A stretch of DNA of 64,000 nucleotides from Clostridia bacterium (GCA_017631325.1 JAGBTM010000006.1:23159-87158), one strand, 5' to 3'. Counted from the stretch's first letter, positions 8,435-44,192 are shown. Numbers and translations: made by a program. The notes: a model not told the origin generated them from the letters alone.

Positions 8435-8635
8435 AGTTCCTCCGTTTCTTTACCAGTGTCAAAATTAAAAAGCATTGTTATAACTATGTGCAAAAAGCTC
8501 TAAAAGCATTGTAACACAAATATTATATATTAAAAGAATAATTATGTCAACCGCTTCTTCGCGAAAATTACAATCACTCTAAAGGCGAAACGTCATATCG
8601 CCTTTTTTGTGGATATACCTAACCTTCGTCATACA

Positions 8636-8664
8636 TTGACAAAGAATTACGAAAGTGGTATAAT
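8636..8664 (+). promoter_or_regulatory. Consensus SigA promoter (TTGACA-17-TATAAT, TGn extended -10)
   Basis: TTGACA at 8636-8641, 17-nt spacer, TGgTATAAT ending at 8664, upstream of the ORF starting at 8708. Confidence 0.65.
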
Positions 8665-8707
8665 GAGGACAAATCAAAAACCAAGACAAAAGCAAAGGAG
8701 AAAATCA

Positions 8708-9484
8708 ATGTTCAAAAACACAACAGCTTCGATTGATGCTATCATTCGCGACGTTAAAACGGTGGCGCTGCTCGTAACCGTAATTTCCAACTTGATTTGT
8801 ATCGGTTATTTTACCTATGCTTCAATAGTCGGCACGGGATTTATGGCAATAAATATTGCCACTGTGGTTATATCGCTCGCCTACATAATAATTTATGCGG
8901 TGACGTACAGCAAAAAAGGAACGGAGAAAAAGGTTCACAGTGTTGCGGCAAAGATAAACAGCGGAGCAAAACTTGTATTCAGAACCATAACACTCGTGGC
9001 TACAATCTACGGTATAATTATAGCCGGTTCAAACAGTAACGGAATAACTATTATTCTCGCAACACTTTCAATTCTGATGTGGATTGTAAGCTTCGTCGTG
9101 GAAGTGCTTAAGTACTACGTTGAAATCAGATTTAATCAGCTTAAGGAAAGCCTTAAGAAGGATTTGATGGCACCCGTAAATACTGTTAAAGCAATAGGCA
9201 ATGGAGTTGCAAACGCGGTTAAGAGTGGAATTGAAATAGTTAAGGTTGCAGGCGAGGCAATATGCGAGGACGTTGAAGAAATAATCTGTGAAGGCAAGGA
9301 AGCGATACATCACGGCATGGAAGCTGTTGTTCACGGTCCTGCAGCAGAAAAATCAAAAGGCCTGTTTTTCAAAATGAAGCAGGCGGTACTTATGCGGAAG
9401 AGCGAAAAAGAAAGAAAAAAGCTTGCAAAAAAAGAAGCCAAGTTGCTTAAAGAGCCCAAAGAAAAGCAGCCGATTACCAAGTAA
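8708..9484 (+). CDS. Hypothetical multi-pass membrane protein with Lys-rich C-terminal tail
   Basis: ATG 8708 follows AAAGGAGA; the ORF-track start at 8609 is a GTG with no RBS. There are about four hydrophobic segments, then KSEKERKKLAKKEAKLLKEPKEK. No family recognised. Confidence 0.6.
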   Translation: MFKNTTASIDAIIRDVKTVALLVTVISNLICIGYFTYASIVGTGFMAINIATVVISLAYIIIYAVTYSKKGTEKKVHSVAAKINSGAKLVFRTITLVATIYGIIIAGSNSNGITIILATLSILMWIVSFVVEVLKYYVEIRFNQLKESLKKDLMAPVNTVKAIGNGVANAVKSGIEIVKVAGEAICEDVEEIICEGKEAIHHGMEAVVHGPAAEKSKGLFFKMKQAVLMRKSEKERKKLAKKEAKLLKEPKEKQPITK

Positions 9485-14943: not shown

Positions 14944-17442
14944 CTATCTGCCAAAATAAGGGGTGTATCCCGCTCTATCCTCGCACGCCTTTGCTAGCTC
15001 TTCGTTCATATCAGGTACGCATAGTGAAAGGGAAGAAAAAATGAGGTCGTATTTGCGCGCGATGCTCTCTTCGTCTAGGGATTTGTCAATAGCATAGGCA
15101 CAGGTGGAGCTGTTGTTTATAGCGGGAAGGTTCTTTTGCCATTTTTCCACGGTGGCGTCGTACAGAGCCTTGTACTCGGCTCTTTCCTCTGCGGTATAAT
15201 AGTCGTCAAGGTAGGGGTACAAATCAAGGAGCGCCTCGGTGTTGTATTCCGAGTATTCCCCAAACACCGTATTCATAGCGGAGATATAGGAGGCGATTTC
15301 CTTGTATCCCTTGTCTGTGGTTTTTCCTATTACGGCTTGTGCATACGACAGGTATTCCTTGGTAACGGCAAACACCCTCGTGGAATTTATCGCACCGTGC
15401 TTTGTGAGTGCGGATTTGTCGGTGCGGTACGGGTTGAAGCTCTTAAGTCTTCCGTAGCCCGATACCGAAATGACGGTGGTGAGGCTGAACTCACCGAGGT
15501 GCTTTGTGAGAAGCGCCTCGAGGCCCTCGAACATCGGCTCTACAATATATTTTTCAAAATCTTCCTTGAGGATAGCTCCCGGGACGGTTGCCTTTTTCGG
15601 AGTGTTCTCACCGTCTGCAAGGCATACTACCGAAAGAGAGTATAGCTCGGTCGCGCTACCCTCAATTTTGGCCCACTGCTCGCGCGTGCCGTCGTAGTAG
15701 ATAGCCACGAGAGAGGTACAGTCACAAAGGGCGTTTTCTGCTATTTTGGTGACACCCGTGTGAAGATTTAAGTAAATGAGGCTCTCAAGACCTGCGAGTG
15801 CGTAGCTCTTTATTTCGCTTATGCTGTTCGGCAGAGTTAAGTGCGTGAGGGCTGTACGGTTAATATAGAGCGCGCCTGCGTGATAGGTGGGGTTAGAGTC
15901 CTTTGTGGTATAGTCTATTTTAAGATACGAGGCTATATCGCTGATATAAACCGACGAGAGCCTATGGCAGTTATAGAAGGCCTCTTTGCCGATTTTTTCA
16001 AGAGTGGTAGGCAGTGTGATTTCCCTGAGATTTGTACATTGAGAGAAAACCTTTTGTCCAATTTCGGATACACCCTCGGGGATAAGTAGCGAGCTAAGGT
16101 AGAAATGACGGTAAAAGGCATACTCGTAAATAGCGTAGCCATCACCCATAAAGCTCGTGGGAAGCGTGGGTGAGTTATCGCCGCCCGTGTATGCGACAAG
16201 ATAATTTTTATCTTCATAGGTATAGAAGATATAGTCACCCTCGCAGACAAGACGCGAGGGACCTGAGTGTACCTCGAGCGCATAAAGACCAACCTTGCCG
16301 TAGTCGGTAGAGCCTGCTACGACGTCGAGAGAGCTGTTATTTATGACCTCTACCATCTTGTAGCAGTCGATAAAGGCCGTTTCGTTAATATATTCTACCG
16401 ATGCGCCAAGGGTTACGGACACAAGGTCGTTACAGTCGAAAAATGCGCTTGTGTGTATGTGGGTTACGCTGTCCGGAATGACGAGCGTTGTAATAGAGCG
16501 GCAGCTTGTAAAGGTGTTTGCGCCTATCGTTCTGACGCCCTCGGGAACGTTGATTTTCTTAAATCCGTATCCGCCTATAAAGGCGTAATTTCCAATGCTC
16601 GTAACACTGTCGGGTATATTCAGCTCGGTCACCTCTTTTTCGTTTAGGTAGAGGGCGTGTGAATAATAAAGGGGATTTGAGTATCTGTTTGCAAACGAAA
16701 GCTTACACCATCTCTCAAGGCAGGATATGTTCAGACGCTGAAGCCCTGTGCAACCGAGAAAGGCGTCCTTACCGATAGACGTAATGCTTTCGGGTATCGT
16801 TACCTGACGAAGAGATTTAAGTCCCGAGAAAGCACCCTCGGATATGGCAGTAACGCTCTTTCCGTTATAGCTTTGGGGGATAGAGAGTATCTCTCCCTCA
16901 CCCTCGTAGCCGGAAACCGCGTAGTAGCTACCCATATCGGTGTAGGTGACGGTAAGCACGTCGGTGTTTTGTGAGGTGTATACGCTATCGCATACAAGAC
17001 ATCTTCCGCCTACGTAGTCGTGCGCCTCAACGTCGGTTGTAAATGCGCACTCGGTACATTCTCGTCTGTGTCCGTCGCCTGCCGAGACGAAGTCACCGAG
17101 ACTATGAGAGAGCCTTGTTCCTTCGTCGGTCACGGTGTCGACAGCGCCGCATCTATGACAGACGGCGCTCTTCGTTCCGTCACGCTCACAGCTTGCGTCG
17201 GCGCACGAGACGTACTCACTAAGGTCGTGTCCGAGTGCTGAGTCCTCGTCGCTTATCGTAACGGTCTGCTGGCACACGGTACATTTTGCACTTTTAGTTC
17301 CGTCGCTCTCGCAGGTAGCGTCACCGTTTTCCAAAAAAGGCTCGAGAGTGTGTCCCGATTTGCAGGGATTCTCCCCCTCGCACGAGGCGAGCGCAAGCAC
17401 GCAAAGCAGGCCTATAAATGATGCTGTAATTATCTTTTTCAT
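14944..17442 (-). CDS. Surface lipoprotein: N-terminal Cys-rich repeat modules, BspA-type leucine-rich repeats, C-terminal domain of unknown function
   Basis: Signal peptide plus lipobox (LALASC). Three to four modules of H..(x)..C..DGTKSA.C..C. There are many repeats of the I(P/T).SVTSIG..AF..C..L type. Confidence 0.8.
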   Translation of the reverse strand: MKKIITASFIGLLCVLALASCEGENPCKSGHTLEPFLENGDATCESDGTKSAKCTVCQQTVTISDEDSALGHDLSEYVSCADASCERDGTKSAVCHRCGAVDTVTDEGTRLSHSLGDFVSAGDGHRRECTECAFTTDVEAHDYVGGRCLVCDSVYTSQNTDVLTVTYTDMGSYYAVSGYEGEGEILSIPQSYNGKSVTAISEGAFSGLKSLRQVTIPESITSIGKDAFLGCTGLQRLNISCLERWCKLSFANRYSNPLYYSHALYLNEKEVTELNIPDSVTSIGNYAFIGGYGFKKINVPEGVRTIGANTFTSCRSITTLVIPDSVTHIHTSAFFDCNDLVSVTLGASVEYINETAFIDCYKMVEVINNSSLDVVAGSTDYGKVGLYALEVHSGPSRLVCEGDYIFYTYEDKNYLVAYTGGDNSPTLPTSFMGDGYAIYEYAFYRHFYLSSLLIPEGVSEIGQKVFSQCTNLREITLPTTLEKIGKEAFYNCHRLSSVYISDIASYLKIDYTTKDSNPTYHAGALYINRTALTHLTLPNSISEIKSYALAGLESLIYLNLHTGVTKIAENALCDCTSLVAIYYDGTREQWAKIEGSATELYSLSVVCLADGENTPKKATVPGAILKEDFEKYIVEPMFEGLEALLTKHLGEFSLTTVISVSGYGRLKSFNPYRTDKSALTKHGAINSTRVFAVTKEYLSYAQAVIGKTTDKGYKEIASYISAMNTVFGEYSEYNTEALLDLYPYLDDYYTAEERAEYKALYDATVEKWQKNLPAINNSSTCAYAIDKSLDEESIARKYDLIFSSLSLCVPDMNEELAKACEDRAGYTPYFGR

Positions 17443-38153: not shown

Positions 38154-40457
38154 ATGAGAGACAGACGCGATTTTTTACCCGTCACCCTCGAGGACGTACG
38201 TCAGAGGCGATGGGCTGAGATTGATTTCGTTTACGTGACGGGTGATGCCTACGTGGATCACCCGTCCTTCGGCGCTTCTATCATTACGCGCGTTCTCGAG
38301 AACGAGGGCTTTCGTGTGGCGGTTCTTGCGCAGCCCGATTACAAGAGCTGTGAGGATTTCAAGCGCTTCGGCAGACCCCGTCTTGGCTTTTTGGTATCTA
38401 GCGGAAACATAGATTCTATGGTTGCGCACTATACGGTGTCAAAAAAGAAGCGCACCTACGATTATTACAGCGCGGGCGGTAAGATGGGCGCGCGCCCTGA
38501 CAGAGCTCTTATCGTATACTGCAACAGAATACGCGAGGCTTACGGTGACGTGCCGATTATCGTCGGTGGACTTGAGGCCTCGCTTCGCAGGTTTGCTCAC
38601 TACGATTATTGGGACGACAGGGTGAGGCGCAGTATCCTCGTTGACTCGAGAGCCGACATTCTCACCTACGGAATGGGCGAAAATATTATAAAGAGAATAG
38701 CAGCGCTTCTTGATAAGGGCGTACCCGTGCGCAAAATTCGTGACGTACGAGGTACGGTTTATCTTGCAAAGTCTGACGAGAAGCCGCACTTTGATTTTAT
38801 CTCGGTCGGTGATTACGACACCTTAAAGACCGACAAGTCGGCCTATGCCAAGGCCTTTGCAGTGCAGTATAAGAACACCGACTCGGTGAACGGACGCGCC
38901 GTGGTAGAGAGCTACGGTGACAAAATACTCGTCCAAAATCCCCCTATGCCGCCTCTTGAACGTGAGGAGCTCGACGAGGTCTACGCTCTTCCGTATGCGC
39001 GCGACTACCACCCGGACTATGAGAGCGAGGGCGGTGTTCCCGCTATAAACGAGGTTAAATTCTCGATAACTCACAACAGAGGATGCTTTGGAGCCTGTAA
39101 CTTCTGTGCAATTGCTTTCCATCAGGGACGTGAGGTTCGCTCTCGAAGTGTCGAGAGCGTTGTAGCCGAGGCGAAGATTATTACCGAGATGCCCGATTTC
39201 AAGGGCTATATAAACGACGTCGGAGGCCCTACGGCCAATTTCCGTTATCCGTCGTGTGATAAGCAGAAGAAGGACGGAGTTTGTCCCACTCGCAAGTGCC
39301 TCTCGCCTACTCCCTGCAAGAATTTGAAGGTGGACCACACCGAGTATGCAAATATGCTCTCCGAGATTGAAGCATTGCCCAAAATTAAGAAGGTTTTCGT
39401 GCGCTCGGGTATACGCTTTGATTATCTTAGCTATGACAAGGACGACAGCTTCTTCCGTCAGCTCGTTACAAGACACGTCTCGGGACAGCTTAAGGTTGCC
39501 CCCGAGCATTGCTCGAACTCGGCTCTCGCCATGATGGGCAAGCCTCCGATAGAGGTATACGAGCGCTTCAGGAGTAAGTATTTTTCGCTCTGCAAGGAAG
39601 CAGGGCTTGAGCAGTATCTCGTGCCGTATCTTATGTCGAGCCATCCCGGTGCGACGATGAACGATGCGGTAGAGATGGCCCTTTGGCTAAAGAAATGGGG
39701 ATATATGCCGGAGCAGGTCCAGGATTTTTATCCCACCCCAGGCACAATATCAACCGTTATGTACTACACGGGCATTCACCCAATGACTGGCAAGACCGTG
39801 TACGTAACCACCGATTACAACGAAAAGAAACTTCAGAGAGCTCTTCTTCAATATTCCAAGCCCGAGAACGCAAATCTCGTCAGAGAGGCGCTGAGGATAG
39901 CAGGAAGAGAGGACCTTATAGGCCTCGGACCCGACTGTCTTGTCCGTCCTGCCTTTGGTAAGGGTACACAGTGGCACCCTGAATCTCGGGGTAAGAATGG
40001 CACAAGGTCCGCGCGCGGCACGGCTACTACCAAGAACGGCTCGAAGTTTGCGAATGGTACGACTAGCACTAAGAACGGCTCGAAGTTTGCGAACGGTACG
40101 ACTAGCACCAAGAACGGCTCAAAGTCTGCGAATGGTGTGGCAACGAAATTCGTCACCCGTCAAGATGCAACAGACAAGTCCATTGGCAAGTCAAAAAAAC
40201 AGGGCTCTAATCGCTCTAATGCAAATAAATCTTTGCAAAAAGAGAATAAAATCATATTTGGCGCTCACGCAGGCTTTAATGACGGAGCGAAGTCCACGAG
40301 GAGCGGTGGCAGAATGGGACTCTCGGGACGGTCGAAAAAGCTCGACAGAGTCTTCGGCTCCGATGCTCTGAGGATAAGAAAAGAGGCCGACAGGCTCTCG
40401 AGTGGCGCAAATCAAAAAAAGGCAAGCAAAAGGGCAAAAGTAAATAAAAACGGCTAA
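38154..40457 (+). CDS. ygiQ: YgiQ-family radical SAM protein with long basic, repeat-containing C-terminal tail
   Basis: FLPVT...DFVYVTGDAYVDHPSFG, and CFGACNFCAI (CxxxCxxC). The start lies 1 nt after the hisS stop. Confidence 0.85.
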   Translation: MRDRRDFLPVTLEDVRQRRWAEIDFVYVTGDAYVDHPSFGASIITRVLENEGFRVAVLAQPDYKSCEDFKRFGRPRLGFLVSSGNIDSMVAHYTVSKKKRTYDYYSAGGKMGARPDRALIVYCNRIREAYGDVPIIVGGLEASLRRFAHYDYWDDRVRRSILVDSRADILTYGMGENIIKRIAALLDKGVPVRKIRDVRGTVYLAKSDEKPHFDFISVGDYDTLKTDKSAYAKAFAVQYKNTDSVNGRAVVESYGDKILVQNPPMPPLEREELDEVYALPYARDYHPDYESEGGVPAINEVKFSITHNRGCFGACNFCAIAFHQGREVRSRSVESVVAEAKIITEMPDFKGYINDVGGPTANFRYPSCDKQKKDGVCPTRKCLSPTPCKNLKVDHTEYANMLSEIEALPKIKKVFVRSGIRFDYLSYDKDDSFFRQLVTRHVSGQLKVAPEHCSNSALAMMGKPPIEVYERFRSKYFSLCKEAGLEQYLVPYLMSSHPGATMNDAVEMALWLKKWGYMPEQVQDFYPTPGTISTVMYYTGIHPMTGKTVYVTTDYNEKKLQRALLQYSKPENANLVREALRIAGREDLIGLGPDCLVRPAFGKGTQWHPESRGKNGTRSARGTATTKNGSKFANGTTSTKNGSKFANGTTSTKNGSKSANGVATKFVTRQDATDKSIGKSKKQGSNRSNANKSLQKENKIIFGAHAGFNDGAKSTRSGGRMGLSGRSKKLDRVFGSDALRIRKEADRLSSGANQKKASKRAKVNKNG
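40029..40145 (+). repeat. Three in-frame 39-bp tandem repeats (TKNGSKFANGTTS x3) inside the ygiQ tail
   Basis: Units at 40029-40067, 40068-40106 and 40107-40145. The first two differ at only a few synonymous or near-synonymous positions. Confidence 0.9.
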
Positions 40458-40616
40458 AATAAACGTACAAGTGATAAAAACATCGTACTATTTACGAACG
40501 AATAAGGCTACAAAAATATCGGCAGAAACCAAAAAGTCCAAAAAGTTCAAGGGCTTGTATTTAAGTGACTTTTGACAGAAATAACGGAAAAGGATACTTT
40601 TGGAAAAAGCCGTATG

Positions 40617-40748
40617 ATTTCCACATTCATTTTGGGTAAAACTCGATAAAATGTGGATAACTACCACCGTGTTTAGAGTAGTTCGGCGAAATCTCGCCTT
40701 TTTCGACAAAAAGTTTTCCACACTTTCAACATATCGTTTTGTGGAAAA
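40617..40748. promoter_or_regulatory. Cluster of DnaA-box-like 9-mers arranged as two inverted pairs
   Basis: ATTTCCACA at 40617-40625 (2 mismatches), TGTGGATAA at 40652-40660 (perfect complement of TTATCCACA), TTTTCCACA at 40714-40722 (1 mismatch), and TGTGGAAAA at 40740-40748 (1 mismatch). Confidence 0.5.
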
Positions 40749-40913
40749 CTAAGCGCGGAGCTATCAAAGCTTTTGCTTATTTGTCGGGAAAATACAATTT
40801 GTCCACGCGGCTTAGTCGGGCGTCGGTGTCGTTTTTTCTAAAAAACATTTTAAGTTGGCCTTGCGCTTTTTAGTATTTTTTACGAACGATTACTTCAAGA
40901 AAGGATATTCTTA

Positions 40914-43900
40914 ATGAAACACGCACTCGTTTCCGGGAAAAATATTAGTGTCGATCGGTTTCTCGATCTAAAATTACAATCATTTAATAATGGTTGCGAA
41001 GATATATTTTGTTCGTTATGCAAGCAAAAAGCGCAATACATTAGAAAGTCTCGGAATGGGGATAAGGGTCCTTATTTTCGTCATGTAGAAGCTAATGAAA
41101 AATGTTTGTATTCTATTTATGATGGTTTTCATGACGAACAAAGTATGTCGTTTAGAGATGCACTAAAATGCAAATTTGAAAATGATGGTTTTTTTGTTGA
41201 AGAAGAAGTTGTTTTAGAAAATTTCGACAATCAAATCATAGATTTAGTTTGCAAAAAAGAGAATGCGTGTGCATATATTCAAGTTGTTTCTAATAAAAAG
41301 AAATCACGCGAATATGCCCGTGAAACTTATGACAAATTATCAAAATATGTAAGTCCAATATCAGTTTTTTTCATAAGCAATGATCTCAAAAAGAGTGTAG
41401 AATATTTCTCGCCGGAGCCAATTGTTGCCATGGAACATGTGGAAAGGTGGGGGCTTTTGCAATATGAACAAGAAGGCGAACTGTATCGTGAAAGGGACGG
41501 CTTTTTATCGGATTTAGCAATTGTAGATAATAAATGCATAATACAGAAAGATTATAAGACACCATTAGCATATAAATATAAAAGTAATATCCTCAACAAT
41601 TATAGAAAAGAAAACTTCCATTCTAACGAAAAAGAACAGGAAGAAAAAGTGATTAGTAGAGTTCCTGAATATGCTCCCTCACGAGAAGAATCTAGTTGGC
41701 ATCACGACAGAGAAGCGATAAAAAAAGAAAAAGCGGCTTCTAAAGATGGGGGTAAAATTCAAAAGCATTTGTCTGGAACTTTAGAAGACAAGTATTTAAA
41801 TGCGAAACAAAATTTATTTGATAAGGTATACGGTGAGCGCTTAAATCCCGAGCAGCGTCGCGCCGTATTCACCACGCGCGGACCTTTGCTTGTTCTTGCG
41901 GGTGCGGGAAGTGGAAAAACCACGGTTTTGGTCAACCGAATAGCCTATCTTATCAAGTACGGTGACGCGTATTTTTCGGATTTTGTGCCAGACGGTATAA
42001 CGCCCGAGGCCGTGCGCGCGCTTGAGACGGCCGAGAGCTTCTCGCGTGAGGAGATTTCGGAGATTTTGCCTCAGTTCATAACCGCTTCGACACCCCCATG
42101 GCGAGTGCTTGCGATAACCTTTACAAACAAGGCCGCAGGCGAGATTAAGGATAGACTTTTGTCTACGTTTGATGACAAGGATATTGCGTCGTCGGTGTGG
42201 GCCGGAACCTTCCATTCTGTTTGTATGCGTATTTTACGCAAGCACGGTGAGCTTGTGGGTCTTCGCGAGGGATTTTCCATCTACGACACCGACGACAAAA
42301 AGCGTATGATAAGCGATATTATAAAGTCGCTTGGGTACGATGAGAAAACTCTCGCGCCACGCGCCGTGGCTGACGCTATCAGCAGGGCCAAGGATGAGCT
42401 CAAGGGCCCTGACGAGATGGATGTCGGATATGACCCGAGAGGCAAGAAGATTATCGAGATATACCGCTATTACGAGAAGCGTATGAAAGAGCATAACGCT
42501 GTGGATTTCGACGATATTATTATGAAATGCGTCGAGCTTCTTGAGGCTAACAAGGGCGTCAGAGATTATTATCAGGAGAAGTTTATGCACGTTCTTGTTG
42601 ACGAGTATCAGGACACAAACTACGCACAGTTCGTGCTTACGAAAATACTTTCTGATAAGCACGAGAATATAATGGTAGTCGGCGACGACGACCAGAGCAT
42701 ATACAGGTTCCGCGGAGCGACTATTGAGAACATTTTGAACTTTGATAAGACCTATCCGAGCGCGACGGTTATCAAGCTCGAGCAGAATTACCGTTCGACC
42801 TCTAATATACTCGATGCGGCAAACGCTGTGATTTCGCACAATACCGACCGTCACGCAAAGAGCCTTTGGTGCTCGGCAGGAAGCGGTGAAAAAATAACGC
42901 TCAGAGCCGCTGAAAATGCCGAGGGTGAGGGCAGATATATCCTTGATAAAATATCGACAGGGGTACGACTTGGCGGTAAGAAGTATTCGGATTTTGCAGT
43001 TCTTTATCGCACCAACGCACTCGGACGTGCGCTCCAGACTACCTTTGCGAAAAGCGGTATTCCCTATAAGGTTATAGGAGATATGCGCTTCTACGACCGC
43101 AAGGAAATTAAGGATATGGTCGCATATCTTACCGTTATAACCACCCCGAGCGATAATCTTCGCTTAAAGCGTATAATGAACGAGCCAAAGCGAAAAATAG
43201 GCTCGGCAACAGCGGCGGCAATAGAGGAGATAGCACAGCACGAGGGACTTTCAATGTTCGCTGTTATGGAGCGTTCGGAGAGCTATACGGCGCTGCTTAA
43301 GAGTTCTGACAAGCTCACGGCCTTCACCTCTATGATAAATAAAATAAAGGAAGAAAAGACGCTTCCCTCGGAGATACTCACCGAGGTTTTTGAGGCAAGC
43401 GGATACAAGGCCTCTCTTGTCTCGGAGGGCTTTGAGGGACAGGGCAAAATCGAAAACGTAACCGAGCTTATAAACGGTGCGGCCGAATACGAAAAGAGAT
43501 GCTTGGACGAGGATATCGAGCCGACGGCTATGGGATTTCTTGAGGAAATCTCGCTTATCAGCGACGTTGACAGGTACGACGAGACAGCAGATGCAGTAGT
43601 TCTTATGACTATACACGCTGCCAAAGGACTTGAGTTTCCCGTAGTATTTATAGCCGGTATGGAGGACGGAATTTTCCCCTCACAGCAGAACATCGGTGAG
43701 CCGTCGGAGATGAGCGAGGAAAGGCGCCTTGCCTACGTTGCTATAACTCGTGCAAAGGAAAAATTATACATCACCTATGCAAAGGAACGAATGATGTACG
43801 GCAAAACTGCCTACAACAAGCTTTCAAGATTTGCAAAGGACGAGATACCCGAGAGTCTTATAGACGAGGACAAGCCGAGAATGGCACCCCCGCGTATGAC

Positions 43901-44192
43901 AGGAGCACCCGACCGTCCGTGGCAGCGCGAGCGTGCCAGCGGCTATAACCTCAGCGAAATGCGTCGCGACGTTAATATATCGCAAAGACCCACTCCCCAG
44001 AAAAAGCAGGGCGCGAGCGGCTACGGAGTAGAAAAATTTGCTCCCGGAACCAGAATTTCTCATGCTATGTTCGGTGAGGGAGTAATCGCTTCGGCACGTG
44101 ATATGGGCGGTGACGTTTTGTACGAGGTGAACTTCGACAAGGCGGGCACAAAGAAGCTGATGGCAACCTTTGCAAAGCTTAAGAAAATTTAA
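40914..44192 (+). CDS. pcrA: PcrA/UvrD-family ATP-dependent DNA helicase with ~310-aa N-terminal extension (CoiA-like Zn-ribbon/nuclease-type module)
   Basis: The helicase part begins at about nt 41841: LNPEQRRAV, AGAGSGKT, VDEYQDTN, YRSTSNIL, TIHAAKGLEFPVVF, VAITRAKEKLYIT, and a C-terminal GTRISHAMFGEGVI Tudor-like end. The N-terminal 305 codons are AT-rich but fully open. AAAGGA lies 9 nt before ATG 40914. Confidence 0.85.
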   Translation: MKHALVSGKNISVDRFLDLKLQSFNNGCEDIFCSLCKQKAQYIRKSRNGDKGPYFRHVEANEKCLYSIYDGFHDEQSMSFRDALKCKFENDGFFVEEEVVLENFDNQIIDLVCKKENACAYIQVVSNKKKSREYARETYDKLSKYVSPISVFFISNDLKKSVEYFSPEPIVAMEHVERWGLLQYEQEGELYRERDGFLSDLAIVDNKCIIQKDYKTPLAYKYKSNILNNYRKENFHSNEKEQEEKVISRVPEYAPSREESSWHHDREAIKKEKAASKDGGKIQKHLSGTLEDKYLNAKQNLFDKVYGERLNPEQRRAVFTTRGPLLVLAGAGSGKTTVLVNRIAYLIKYGDAYFSDFVPDGITPEAVRALETAESFSREEISEILPQFITASTPPWRVLAITFTNKAAGEIKDRLLSTFDDKDIASSVWAGTFHSVCMRILRKHGELVGLREGFSIYDTDDKKRMISDIIKSLGYDEKTLAPRAVADAISRAKDELKGPDEMDVGYDPRGKKIIEIYRYYEKRMKEHNAVDFDDIIMKCVELLEANKGVRDYYQEKFMHVLVDEYQDTNYAQFVLTKILSDKHENIMVVGDDDQSIYRFRGATIENILNFDKTYPSATVIKLEQNYRSTSNILDAANAVISHNTDRHAKSLWCSAGSGEKITLRAAENAEGEGRYILDKISTGVRLGGKKYSDFAVLYRTNALGRALQTTFAKSGIPYKVIGDMRFYDRKEIKDMVAYLTVITTPSDNLRLKRIMNEPKRKIGSATAAAIEEIAQHEGLSMFAVMERSESYTALLKSSDKLTAFTSMINKIKEEKTLPSEILTEVFEASGYKASLVSEGFEGQGKIENVTELINGAAEYEKRCLDEDIEPTAMGFLEEISLISDVDRYDETADAVVLMTIHAAKGLEFPVVFIAGMEDGIFPSQQNIGEPSEMSEERRLAYVAITRAKEKLYITYAKERMMYGKTAYNKLSRFAKDEIPESLIDEDKPRMAPPRMTGAPDRPWQRERASGYNLSEMRRDVNISQRPTPQKKQGASGYGVEKFAPGTRISHAMFGEGVIASARDMGGDVLYEVNFDKAGTKKLMATFAKLKKI

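Follow-up and report, generated by a model that had tools for sequence, protein, structure and literature searches.

An orphan AT-rich segment fused in frame to the housekeeping helicase gene pcrA in a single lineage of gut Clostridia known from uncultured members

The window analysed here, a stretch of 64,000 nucleotides from a Clostridia bacterium (GCA_017631325.1 JAGBTM010000006.1:23159-87158), contains a pcrA gene in which the beginning of the helicase reading frame has been replaced by foreign DNA. The resulting chimeric open reading frame (ORF) occupies 40914..44192 on the + strand and specifies 1092 amino acids, made up of an orphan module, a probable linker and PcrA itself. Our best reading is that the insert is a horizontally acquired orphan gene segment, fused in frame to pcrA in a recent and lineage-specific event. 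A preliminary description of this DNA had proposed a CoiA-like nuclease module at the front of PcrA. The 1092-residue ORF that it reported is present, as is the long N-terminal extension, put there at about 310 residues: the closest public PcrA proteins (802-817 aa) align with just the final 74% of the query, an excess of around 286 residues, and the PcrA core of the ORF is preceded by around 292 extra residues.

The limits of the insert were placed by comparison with related loci. Gene order (hisS, a radical-SAM gene, pcrA, an M16 peptidase gene and a HAD gene) is shared between the window and the eight loci L001-L008. From 40331/40334 to 40850/40886 the window aligns at 70-75% identity with the intergenic DNA that precedes pcrA in L001, L002 and L008 (BLASTN, MAFFT); homology to these three ends near 40886-40892 and restarts at 41790-41797, at about codon 7 of pcrA. 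On L001, window positions 40334-40886 correspond to 2087-2640, and those from 41797 onward to 2710 onward. The window thus carries an AT-rich foreign insert of about 905 bp (40887..41789, + strand) in place of about 65 bp of ancestral sequence, with each boundary known to about +/-5-15 nt. The 65 bp or so that were lost are the native ribosome-binding site (RBS), the ATG and codons 1-6 of pcrA (MQEIKQ). At the protein level, the sister PcrA proteins P0002, P0003 and P0122 begin with MQEIKQKYLNAK or MKMQETDKKYLDAK, while the window protein at the same point reads ...HLSGTLEDKYLNAK, the fusion junction falling between HLSGTLED and KYLNAK. These synteny breakpoints, together with base composition, bear out the earlier proposal that foreign DNA was fused in frame ahead of pcrA and that the gene has lost its native start.

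The extension is also foreign in composition, as had been claimed. Over its 292 codons the G+C content is 0.335 and that of third codon positions (GC3) is 0.257, compared with a host GC3 of around 0.55 (0.41-0.65 in other long window ORFs, mostly about 0.55). Between 40400 and 41800 the sliding G+C content drops to 0.27-0.40, compared with about 0.50 in both flanks, and a recount of three 60-nt blocks (41041-41100, 41101-41160 and 42001-42060) returned exactly the 23, 18 and 42 G+C previously counted by hand. Part of the low-G+C tract is native, as 40458-40886 is conserved intergenic DNA, and relatives, too, are AT-rich over the first dozen native codons of pcrA. The switch in composition and codon choice had been set at about 41826; the junction between foreign and native sequence in fact lies at about 41772-41790, with homology to sister species resuming at KYLNAK. 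Not one stop occurs in the 292 extension codons, against 11-34 in each of the other five frames and a mean of 24.7 in shuffled versions of the extension (Poisson probability of zero stops about 2e-11). The extension is therefore real coding sequence, and the view that so long an open frame is very unlikely by chance holds.

The same fusion was recovered in other assemblies. The cluster to which the window protein belongs contains a 920-aa version from NCBI and a 1015-aa version from ENA, the latter encoded on five ENA contigs. Three of these contigs (L005-L007) were examined, from three ENA analyses, two of which name different BioSamples. In all three, a 910-bp segment with both junctions is 100% identical to the window. 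Their 6-21 substitutions relative to the window over 11 kb all fall in the flanks, and these single-nucleotide polymorphisms (SNPs) mark the contigs as different strains or assemblies. The identity of insert and junctions in independent contigs therefore largely refutes an assembly artefact, and the reading frame is open from end to end.

Among uncultured gut Clostridia, the fusion is confined to a single species-level lineage. For comparison, we assembled 85 related pcrA loci, consisting of 80 GTDB species-representative loci together with L001-L004 and L008. In nearly all of these a canonical ATG lies 42 codons (occasionally 39-60) before AGAGSGKT, whereas the window lineage alone has 328 codons before this motif and has lost the canonical ATG. 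The extension is absent from all 85 loci, and no insert sequence was found in other fetched loci by tblastn and blastn against 88 loci and the rest of the window. The architecture is not that of an annotated family, and our literature search found nothing on a PcrA with an N-terminal nuclease module. Longer upstream open frames in L072, L073, L079, L081 and L052 were considered and set aside as chance or non-protein-like; these frames keep a Met beside the conserved (R/K)YL.AKR start of PcrA, within the canonical start region.

Downstream of the junction, the core of the ORF (41790..44189, + strand; residues 293-1092) is the syntenic housekeeping PcrA orthologue, is intact, and is orthologous to the sister PcrA proteins (805-810 aa) from their codon 7. 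It matches the Pfam families PF00580 (1.6e-83), PF13361 (8.1e-80) and PF21196, a tudor domain (30.5 bits, gathering score 23.9), and its top NCBIfam match is the pcrA model TIGR01073 (3.6e-234), at 779 bits, below the equivalog cutoff of 911. The UvrD/PcrA domains of both collections run from about residue 310, and LNPEQ begins at nt 41841, precisely as described earlier. Amino acid identity of the core is 89% to P0002 and 86% to P0003 (range 86-90% among sister PcrA proteins), and P0122 falls in the same 90% cluster. As the nearest orthologue shows 89% identity in protein versus 79% in DNA, the PcrA core has therefore remained under purifying selection. No second UvrD-like gene was present among the window ORFs examined.

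Two separate observations concern PcrA in this group. An insertion of about 45 residues (YGDAYFSDFVPDGITPEAVRALETAESFSREEISEILPQFITASTPPW) lies in helicase domain 1A at about 41931-42083 (residues 340-390), between the Walker A region and motif Ia, and splits the Pfam and TIGR matches in two. It is present in all close relatives, is clade-wide and is unrelated to the N-terminal fusion. In P0015, a PcrA relative of 926 aa from ENA, an internal stretch of about 120 residues is exactly duplicated in tandem, so that ASLISRAKDRLEDPDAY...SIYRFRGA occurs twice; this duplication could be either real or an assembly artefact.

Upstream of the insert, the native intergenic region of pcrA (40458..40886, + strand) is shared with sister species and presumably holds the pcrA promoter. 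No direct or inverted repeats of note flank the insert, profile scans with transposase and homing-endonuclease models gave no match to it, no Rfam family was matched in the window, and the surrounding 64 kb is ordinary housekeeping chromosome. An intein, a self-splicing intron and an insertion sequence were each considered and rejected, as the insert replaces the 5' end of the gene, has no N-extein, is accompanied by deletion of the native ATG and carries no transposase.

The intergenic region has a further feature of its own. All three exact matches to TTWTCCACA in the 64-kb window, where 0.7 are expected, lie upstream of pcrA, at 40652-40660 (-), 40714-40722 (+) and 40740-40748 (-). They form part of a DnaA-box-like cluster spanning 40616-40748, which includes ATTTCCACA at about 40616-40624 and sits inside the intergenic interval 40458-40913. 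The exact boxes are invariant in L001, L002 and L008, in a 457-bp intergenic region with 79% column identity, and GC skew shows no clear origin-like switch. Judged by these motifs, the region may contain a DnaA-box cluster or a DnaA-regulated pcrA promoter.

At the sequence level the extension is an orphan. No homologue was detected in a word-indexed search of 5.8 billion clusters, in an exhaustive phmmer search of 1.84 billion representatives, among PDB sequences, or in GTDB genomes, IMG/VR and JGI metagenomes scanned with patterns and tblastn. A tblastn search of phages and plasmids gave chance matches only (E >= 1), PHROGs yielded nothing significant (best E 0.014), and no PADLOC model matched the extension. 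The queries for homologues were residues 1-309 or 1-292. The public gene calls for this protein start at internal ATGs, and residues 1-77 or 1-172 are therefore missing from the copies in protein databases. The zinc-ribbon part described below is lost from both public records, and the nuclease-like part is lost from the 920-aa record as well.

The first recognisable element of the extension is a zinc-ribbon-like segment (40986..41111, + strand; residues 25-66), with the arrangement C33-x2-C36 ... Y-F-R-H57 ... C64. All of the motifs quoted in the preliminary description (FCSLCKQK, YFRH, EQSMSFRDALK, FVEEEVVL, IIDLVC and AYIQVVS) occur in the translation, but the spacer from CxxCKQK to YFRH is 14 residues long rather than 12. 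The best model for residues 21-70 is DUF7830 (PF25169; 24.9 bits, E 1.9e-5, profile positions 31-67 of 72), with 21.8 bits for the 309-aa query; the gathering score of 27.5 is above both values. DUF7828 gave a faint match to the same segment (E 0.077), and we found nothing in the literature on DUF7830. None of five full shuffles of residues 21-70 matched DUF7830, and one of five Cys/His-preserving shuffles did so at 14.6 bits. Roughly 10 bits of the DUF7830 score thus come from residues other than the ligands, which makes a zinc ribbon probable.

The link between this segment and CoiA runs through the same models. An approximate CoiA query (84% identical to a real streptococcal CoiA) matched CoiA_N and CoiA_nuc. 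Over its zinc finger it also gave weaker matches to DUF7828 and DUF7830, and precomputed matches to PF25165 (DUF7828) exist for many real CoiAs from streptococci. As the N-terminal finger of CoiA also matches DUF7830, DUF7830 is therefore a relative of that finger, and residues 25-66 are probably a zinc ribbon of the CoiA_N/DUF7830 type. The CoiA_N-type zinc ribbon proposed earlier is thus weakly supported by a score well clear of those of the shuffles, and falls short at the gathering score.

The following region (41136..41408, + strand; residues 75-165) is a possible restriction-endonuclease-like domain with the order alpha-beta-beta-beta-alpha-beta. AlphaFold2 was run on single sequences, as no alignment could be built, and gave a predicted local distance difference test (pLDDT) score of 35.0 for residues 1-309, and of 43.6 with a predicted template-modelling (pTM) score of 0.45 for residues 21-175. 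The model of residues 21-175 runs alpha(80-90), beta(93-95), beta(110-114), beta(119-125), alpha(132-143), beta(149-155), beta(161-165). Its top Foldseek matches in the PDB include tRNA-splicing endonuclease, Hjc, HincII, EcoO109I, the Cas4-family ACE1 and PA-N/viral cap-snatching endonucleases, and about 40 of the top 50 are what we take to be restriction-endonuclease-like (PD-(D/E)xK) folds. The best E value was 6.6e-3, none came under 0.001, and all template-modelling (TM) scores were below 0.5; the 309-aa model gave a noisier list with the same leaders. As no alignment was possible for the prediction, these Foldseek results serve as hints only. Among Pfam families, residues 70-170 come closest to HSDR_N_2, which forms the N-terminus of R subunits in type I restriction enzymes, but the match is not significant (E 0.05). 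The hints at a nuclease fold are mutually consistent and none is significant alone. A restriction-endonuclease-type module, as first described, is accordingly still suggested by the Foldseek and HSDR_N_2 results, while no significant match stands behind it, and a check with NERD and other nuclease models produced no match to the extension.

The residues expected of an active site were sought by eye. Asp110 (41241-41243, + strand) is a candidate for the acidic residue of beta2, while beta3, A-Y121-I-Q123 (41274-41282, + strand), has no acidic residue, and no canonical (D/E)xK was found in the predicted beta3 sequence C-A-Y-I-Q-V-V; a variant active site is conceivable. As the acidic residue that a comparison with CoiA would place in beta3 is missing, we regard it as unlikely that the module is an active nuclease. 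Beyond this domain, residues 166-215 (41409..41558, + strand) contain predicted beta-strands in a low-confidence model and match no family. Residues 216-292 (41559..41789, + strand), which end at the fusion junction, are rich in K, E and S and poor in hydrophobic residues (38% charged, 21% hydrophobic), have pLDDT values below 50 and match no family; they are probably a flexible linker.

Taking these results together, we lean, by a little more than an even chance, towards a recent lineage-specific fusion of an acquired orphan gene to pcrA that is made as a 1092-aa PcrA with a normal helicase core. Under this reading, about 0.9 kb of AT-rich DNA with an RBS, an ATG and about 292 codons would have recombined into the chromosome so as to join the conserved promoter region to codon 7 of pcrA, and the RBS, the ATG and six codons that originally stood between them were lost. 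Transcription would come from the retained native upstream region, and translation would run from ATG 40914 straight into pcrA to give the 1092-aa protein. Such a protein would consist of the zinc ribbon at residues 25-66, probably an endonuclease-like fold at residues 75-165, a 50-residue segment, a K/E-rich linker of about 75 residues and the PcrA core. The helicase core would presumably keep its usual PcrA job. The module would sit on a flexible tether and, if it is active at all, would be likelier to act as a DNA-binding or structure-recognising appendage near the motor than to cut.

Several observations count against this picture. The evidence for the fold lies throughout below the usual thresholds, from pLDDT values of 35-44 to Foldseek E values of at least 6.6e-3 and Pfam scores below gathering. 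The start at ATG 40914 we infer from the sequence alone; internal candidates exist at GTG 41649 and TTG 41769, and public gene callers picked internal ATGs instead (920 and 1015 aa). Selection acting on the module is not measurable, as the insert has no SNPs among the recovered assemblies. Finally, pcrA is essential in the Firmicutes studied so far. As any stop in the module would switch off translation of PcrA, the open frame is no proof that the module is useful.

This last point leads directly to the most serious alternative, which we think doubtful but by no means negligible, namely that the long protein is made and the module is a functionless passenger. In that case a near-complete and possibly inactivated gene from a mobile element would have landed in frame, as a frozen accident, and the frame would be kept open only by the need to translate PcrA. 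Such an account sits well with a singleton lineage and an extension without homologues, with the unameliorated composition, which implies a very recent event, and with an insert whose lack of SNPs gives no sign of selection. The expected catalytic acid of beta3 is absent from the by-eye alignment, and the long, probably disordered linker would let PcrA tolerate the module. Set against this, the insert is the only allele in every assembly recovered from the lineage, the zinc-ribbon ligands and predicted secondary-structure elements are intact, and an appendage of 290 residues on a replication and repair helicase would be expected to be costly. Given an insert without variation, the passenger and functional hypotheses are inseparable.

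It is also conceivable, though improbable, that translation mostly begins at an internal start and yields PcrA of near-normal length, with the full-length fusion as a minor product. The ORF has ATG 40914 as the first start codon 3' of an in-frame stop at 40851, and 8 nt upstream of it lies an insert-borne Shine-Dalgarno-like AAAGGA (40900..40905, + strand). The duplex of this sequence with the anti-Shine-Dalgarno is -5.7 kcal/mol, compared with -5.7 to -7.4 for most of the neighbouring genes tested. Further starts lie in frame on the + strand. The GTG at codon 246 (41649..41651) has AGGAAG 7 nt upstream (dG -4.3), a consensus match only, and would give an 847-aa PcrA; given its existence, the statement that no ATG or GTG with an RBS is left does not strictly hold. 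The TTG at codon 286 (41769..41771) precedes the ancestral start position by a single codon, and a PcrA begun there would be 807 aa long; its G-run is indeed poorly spaced, as noted before, at 16 nt. The ATG at codon 173 (41430..41432) is the start in the NCBI-sourced record (920 aa), and the ATG at 41145 is that in the ENA record (1015 aa).

In favour of initiation at GTG 41649, TTG 41769 or ATG 41430 are the independent choice of internal ATGs by two annotation pipelines, the AGGAAG with its 7-nt spacing and the closeness of the TTG to the ancestral start. However, there is no stop between 40914 and the core, and ribosomes starting at a well-placed Shine-Dalgarno/ATG would read through; internal initiation therefore looks secondary. 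Purine runs resembling a Shine-Dalgarno sequence are, moreover, expected by chance in K/E-rich coding sequence. A promoter scan found four sites in the extension against 4.2 expected, and terminator-like sites were likewise without excess.

The preliminary description had gone further, likening the extension to CoiA itself. CoiA combines a C2H2-type N-terminal finger with a PD-(D/E)xK fold whose active site is atypical and with a C-terminal region that bears no signature, and it works together with a helicase; in Streptococcus pneumoniae CoiA, D95 of beta2 and E105 of beta3 are both required (bioRxiv 10.1101/2024.02.06.579203). By eye, the likeness is apparent as CxxC...xFxH...C followed by alpha(E)-beta(VExE)-beta(IxD)-beta(xxQ)-alpha-beta at similar spacing. 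In this alignment IID110 lies opposite IAD95 of CoiA and A-Y121-I-Q123 opposite L-E105-V-Q107, while the HxxH of CoiA reads YFRH (H57) in the window protein, with Cys64 following as in CoiA. The order of elements claimed earlier is therefore recognisable by eye; it has no statistical support, and the beta3 acid is Tyr121. As the alignment is by eye and lacks such support, the assignment of individual residues is uncertain.

Membership of the CoiA family, in contrast, was not borne out. PF06054 (CoiA_nuc; gathering score 20.3 bits) gave no match at E <= 10 with the whole protein, residues 1-309 or sub-fragments, and neither CoiA_N (PF25164) nor CoiA_C (PF25166) matched the whole protein or fragments of the extension. 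An hhalign comparison with 16 real CoiAs gave a probability of 0.26%. A CoiA hidden Markov model (HMM) built from 120 streptococcal sequences and run with filters off scored -0.7 bits, equal to the mean of 2000 shuffles, of which 35% reached at least that score. Local (Smith-Waterman) and semi-global BLOSUM62 alignments to CoiA were likewise no better than those of shuffles.

We therefore weighed two versions of a CoiA-like nuclease. In one, the module would be a CoiA-like endonuclease, structure-specific and still active although it has diverged very far, and would have turned the housekeeping PcrA from an anti-recombinase into a single-chain helicase/nuclease that nicks displaced strands at D-loops or stalled forks; this seems to us a long shot. 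That the module is a true CoiA-family D-loop endonuclease, diverged but active and nicking displaced strands in cis, is less probable still. The latter would fit the order and spacing of elements (zinc finger, alpha with Glu, VExE, IxD, xxQ, alpha, beta), the shared DUF7830/DUF7828 matches of the two N-termini, the similar lengths (292 aa for the extension, 318 aa for CoiA) and the partnership of CoiA with a helicase (bioRxiv 10.1101/2024.02.06.579203). It is opposed by the failure of all three CoiA families to match, by hhalign, HMM and pairwise scores at the level of noise, and by YxxH and Tyr121 at the positions of HxxH and the essential E105. An assembly or sequencing artefact, in the form of a chimeric contig or a frameshift hiding a separate upstream gene, might be suspected from the metagenome-assembled source and the sharp compositional break, but is scarcely credible given three further independently assembled contigs with an identical 910 bp and identical junctions, syntenic native sequence on both sides and a frame open throughout.

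Elsewhere in the window a few features stand apart from the fusion. The adjacent radical-SAM gene (38154-40457; PF08497/PF11842) contains a 39-bp tandem repeat at 40029-40136 (2.8 copies, 91% matches), which encodes NGSKFANGTTSTK repeats in the C-terminal tail of the protein. Strain SNPs cluster within this repeat at 40043-40106, and the product in L007 is 26 aa shorter. A 291-aa ORF at 8609-9481 (+) is lower than its neighbours in G+C (0.40) and GC3 (0.41), has no Pfam match at E <= 1e-5, and could be a further recent acquisition or a gene that evolves fast. At 14947-17442 (-), amid housekeeping genes, lies the gene for an 832-aa BspA-type leucine-rich-repeat protein (LRR_5, 7.4e-61).

Although the case rests on one uncultured lineage, and is a well-documented curiosity rather than a new system or a demonstrated mechanism, it carries some wider implications. 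If the long protein is the real product, it offers a clean and datable case in which horizontal transfer added a domain to a core helicase of replication and repair, the native start being overwritten and expression coming to depend on foreign translation signals. If the module were active, helicase-nuclease machines could arise in one step, and on the active CoiA-like reading an AddA/RecB-like architecture would have been caught at birth, with less than about 0.2% divergence since the event. If it is a passenger, it shows how much N-terminal baggage PcrA can bear. The example also illustrates how start-codon calling hides such fusions, as the truncated records keep the module out of homology searches.

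Comparison with known systems helps to place the fusion. The sister PcrA proteins (P0002, P0003 and P0122; 805-807 aa) share with the window protein the UvrD-helicase, UvrD_C and tudor domains, the domain 1A insertion, the neighbourhood and the upstream region. They start 42 codons before AGAGSGKT; the window has lost that start, and KYLNAK follows a run of 292 foreign codons. With respect to CoiA, the module appears to be fairly described as CoiA-like in layout, with a CoiA-type active site that looks incomplete. CoiA, the D-loop endonuclease of competence in Bacillota, is a stand-alone, competence-induced protein with a C-terminal region, whereas the module is fused to pcrA and has no CoiA_C match.

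The resemblance to AddA and RecB lies in the union of a superfamily 1A (SF1A) motor of the UvrD family with a possible PD-(D/E)xK-fold domain in one polypeptide. AddA and RecB carry at their C-terminus a nuclease from a conserved family, which possesses a canonical active site and acts together with a partner subunit. The module described here, in contrast, is an N-terminal orphan without a canonical (D/E)xK, attached to a housekeeping PcrA whose C-terminus is the PcrA tudor domain. On the helicase part, the NCBIfam model for AddA scores 196 bits and that for RecB 134 bits, against cutoffs of about 700, and no gene for an AddB/RecC-type partner is adjacent to the window pcrA. Helicase-nuclease fusions on UvrD motors are known, while a housekeeping PcrA with an N-terminal zinc-ribbon/endonuclease-fold module is undescribed in the literature searched. 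Some accessory SF1 helicases do carry nuclease-type domains at the N-terminus, as in NERD-UvrD-like proteins. In contrast to these accessory helicases, the window helicase is not island-borne but is the product of the syntenic housekeeping pcrA gene.

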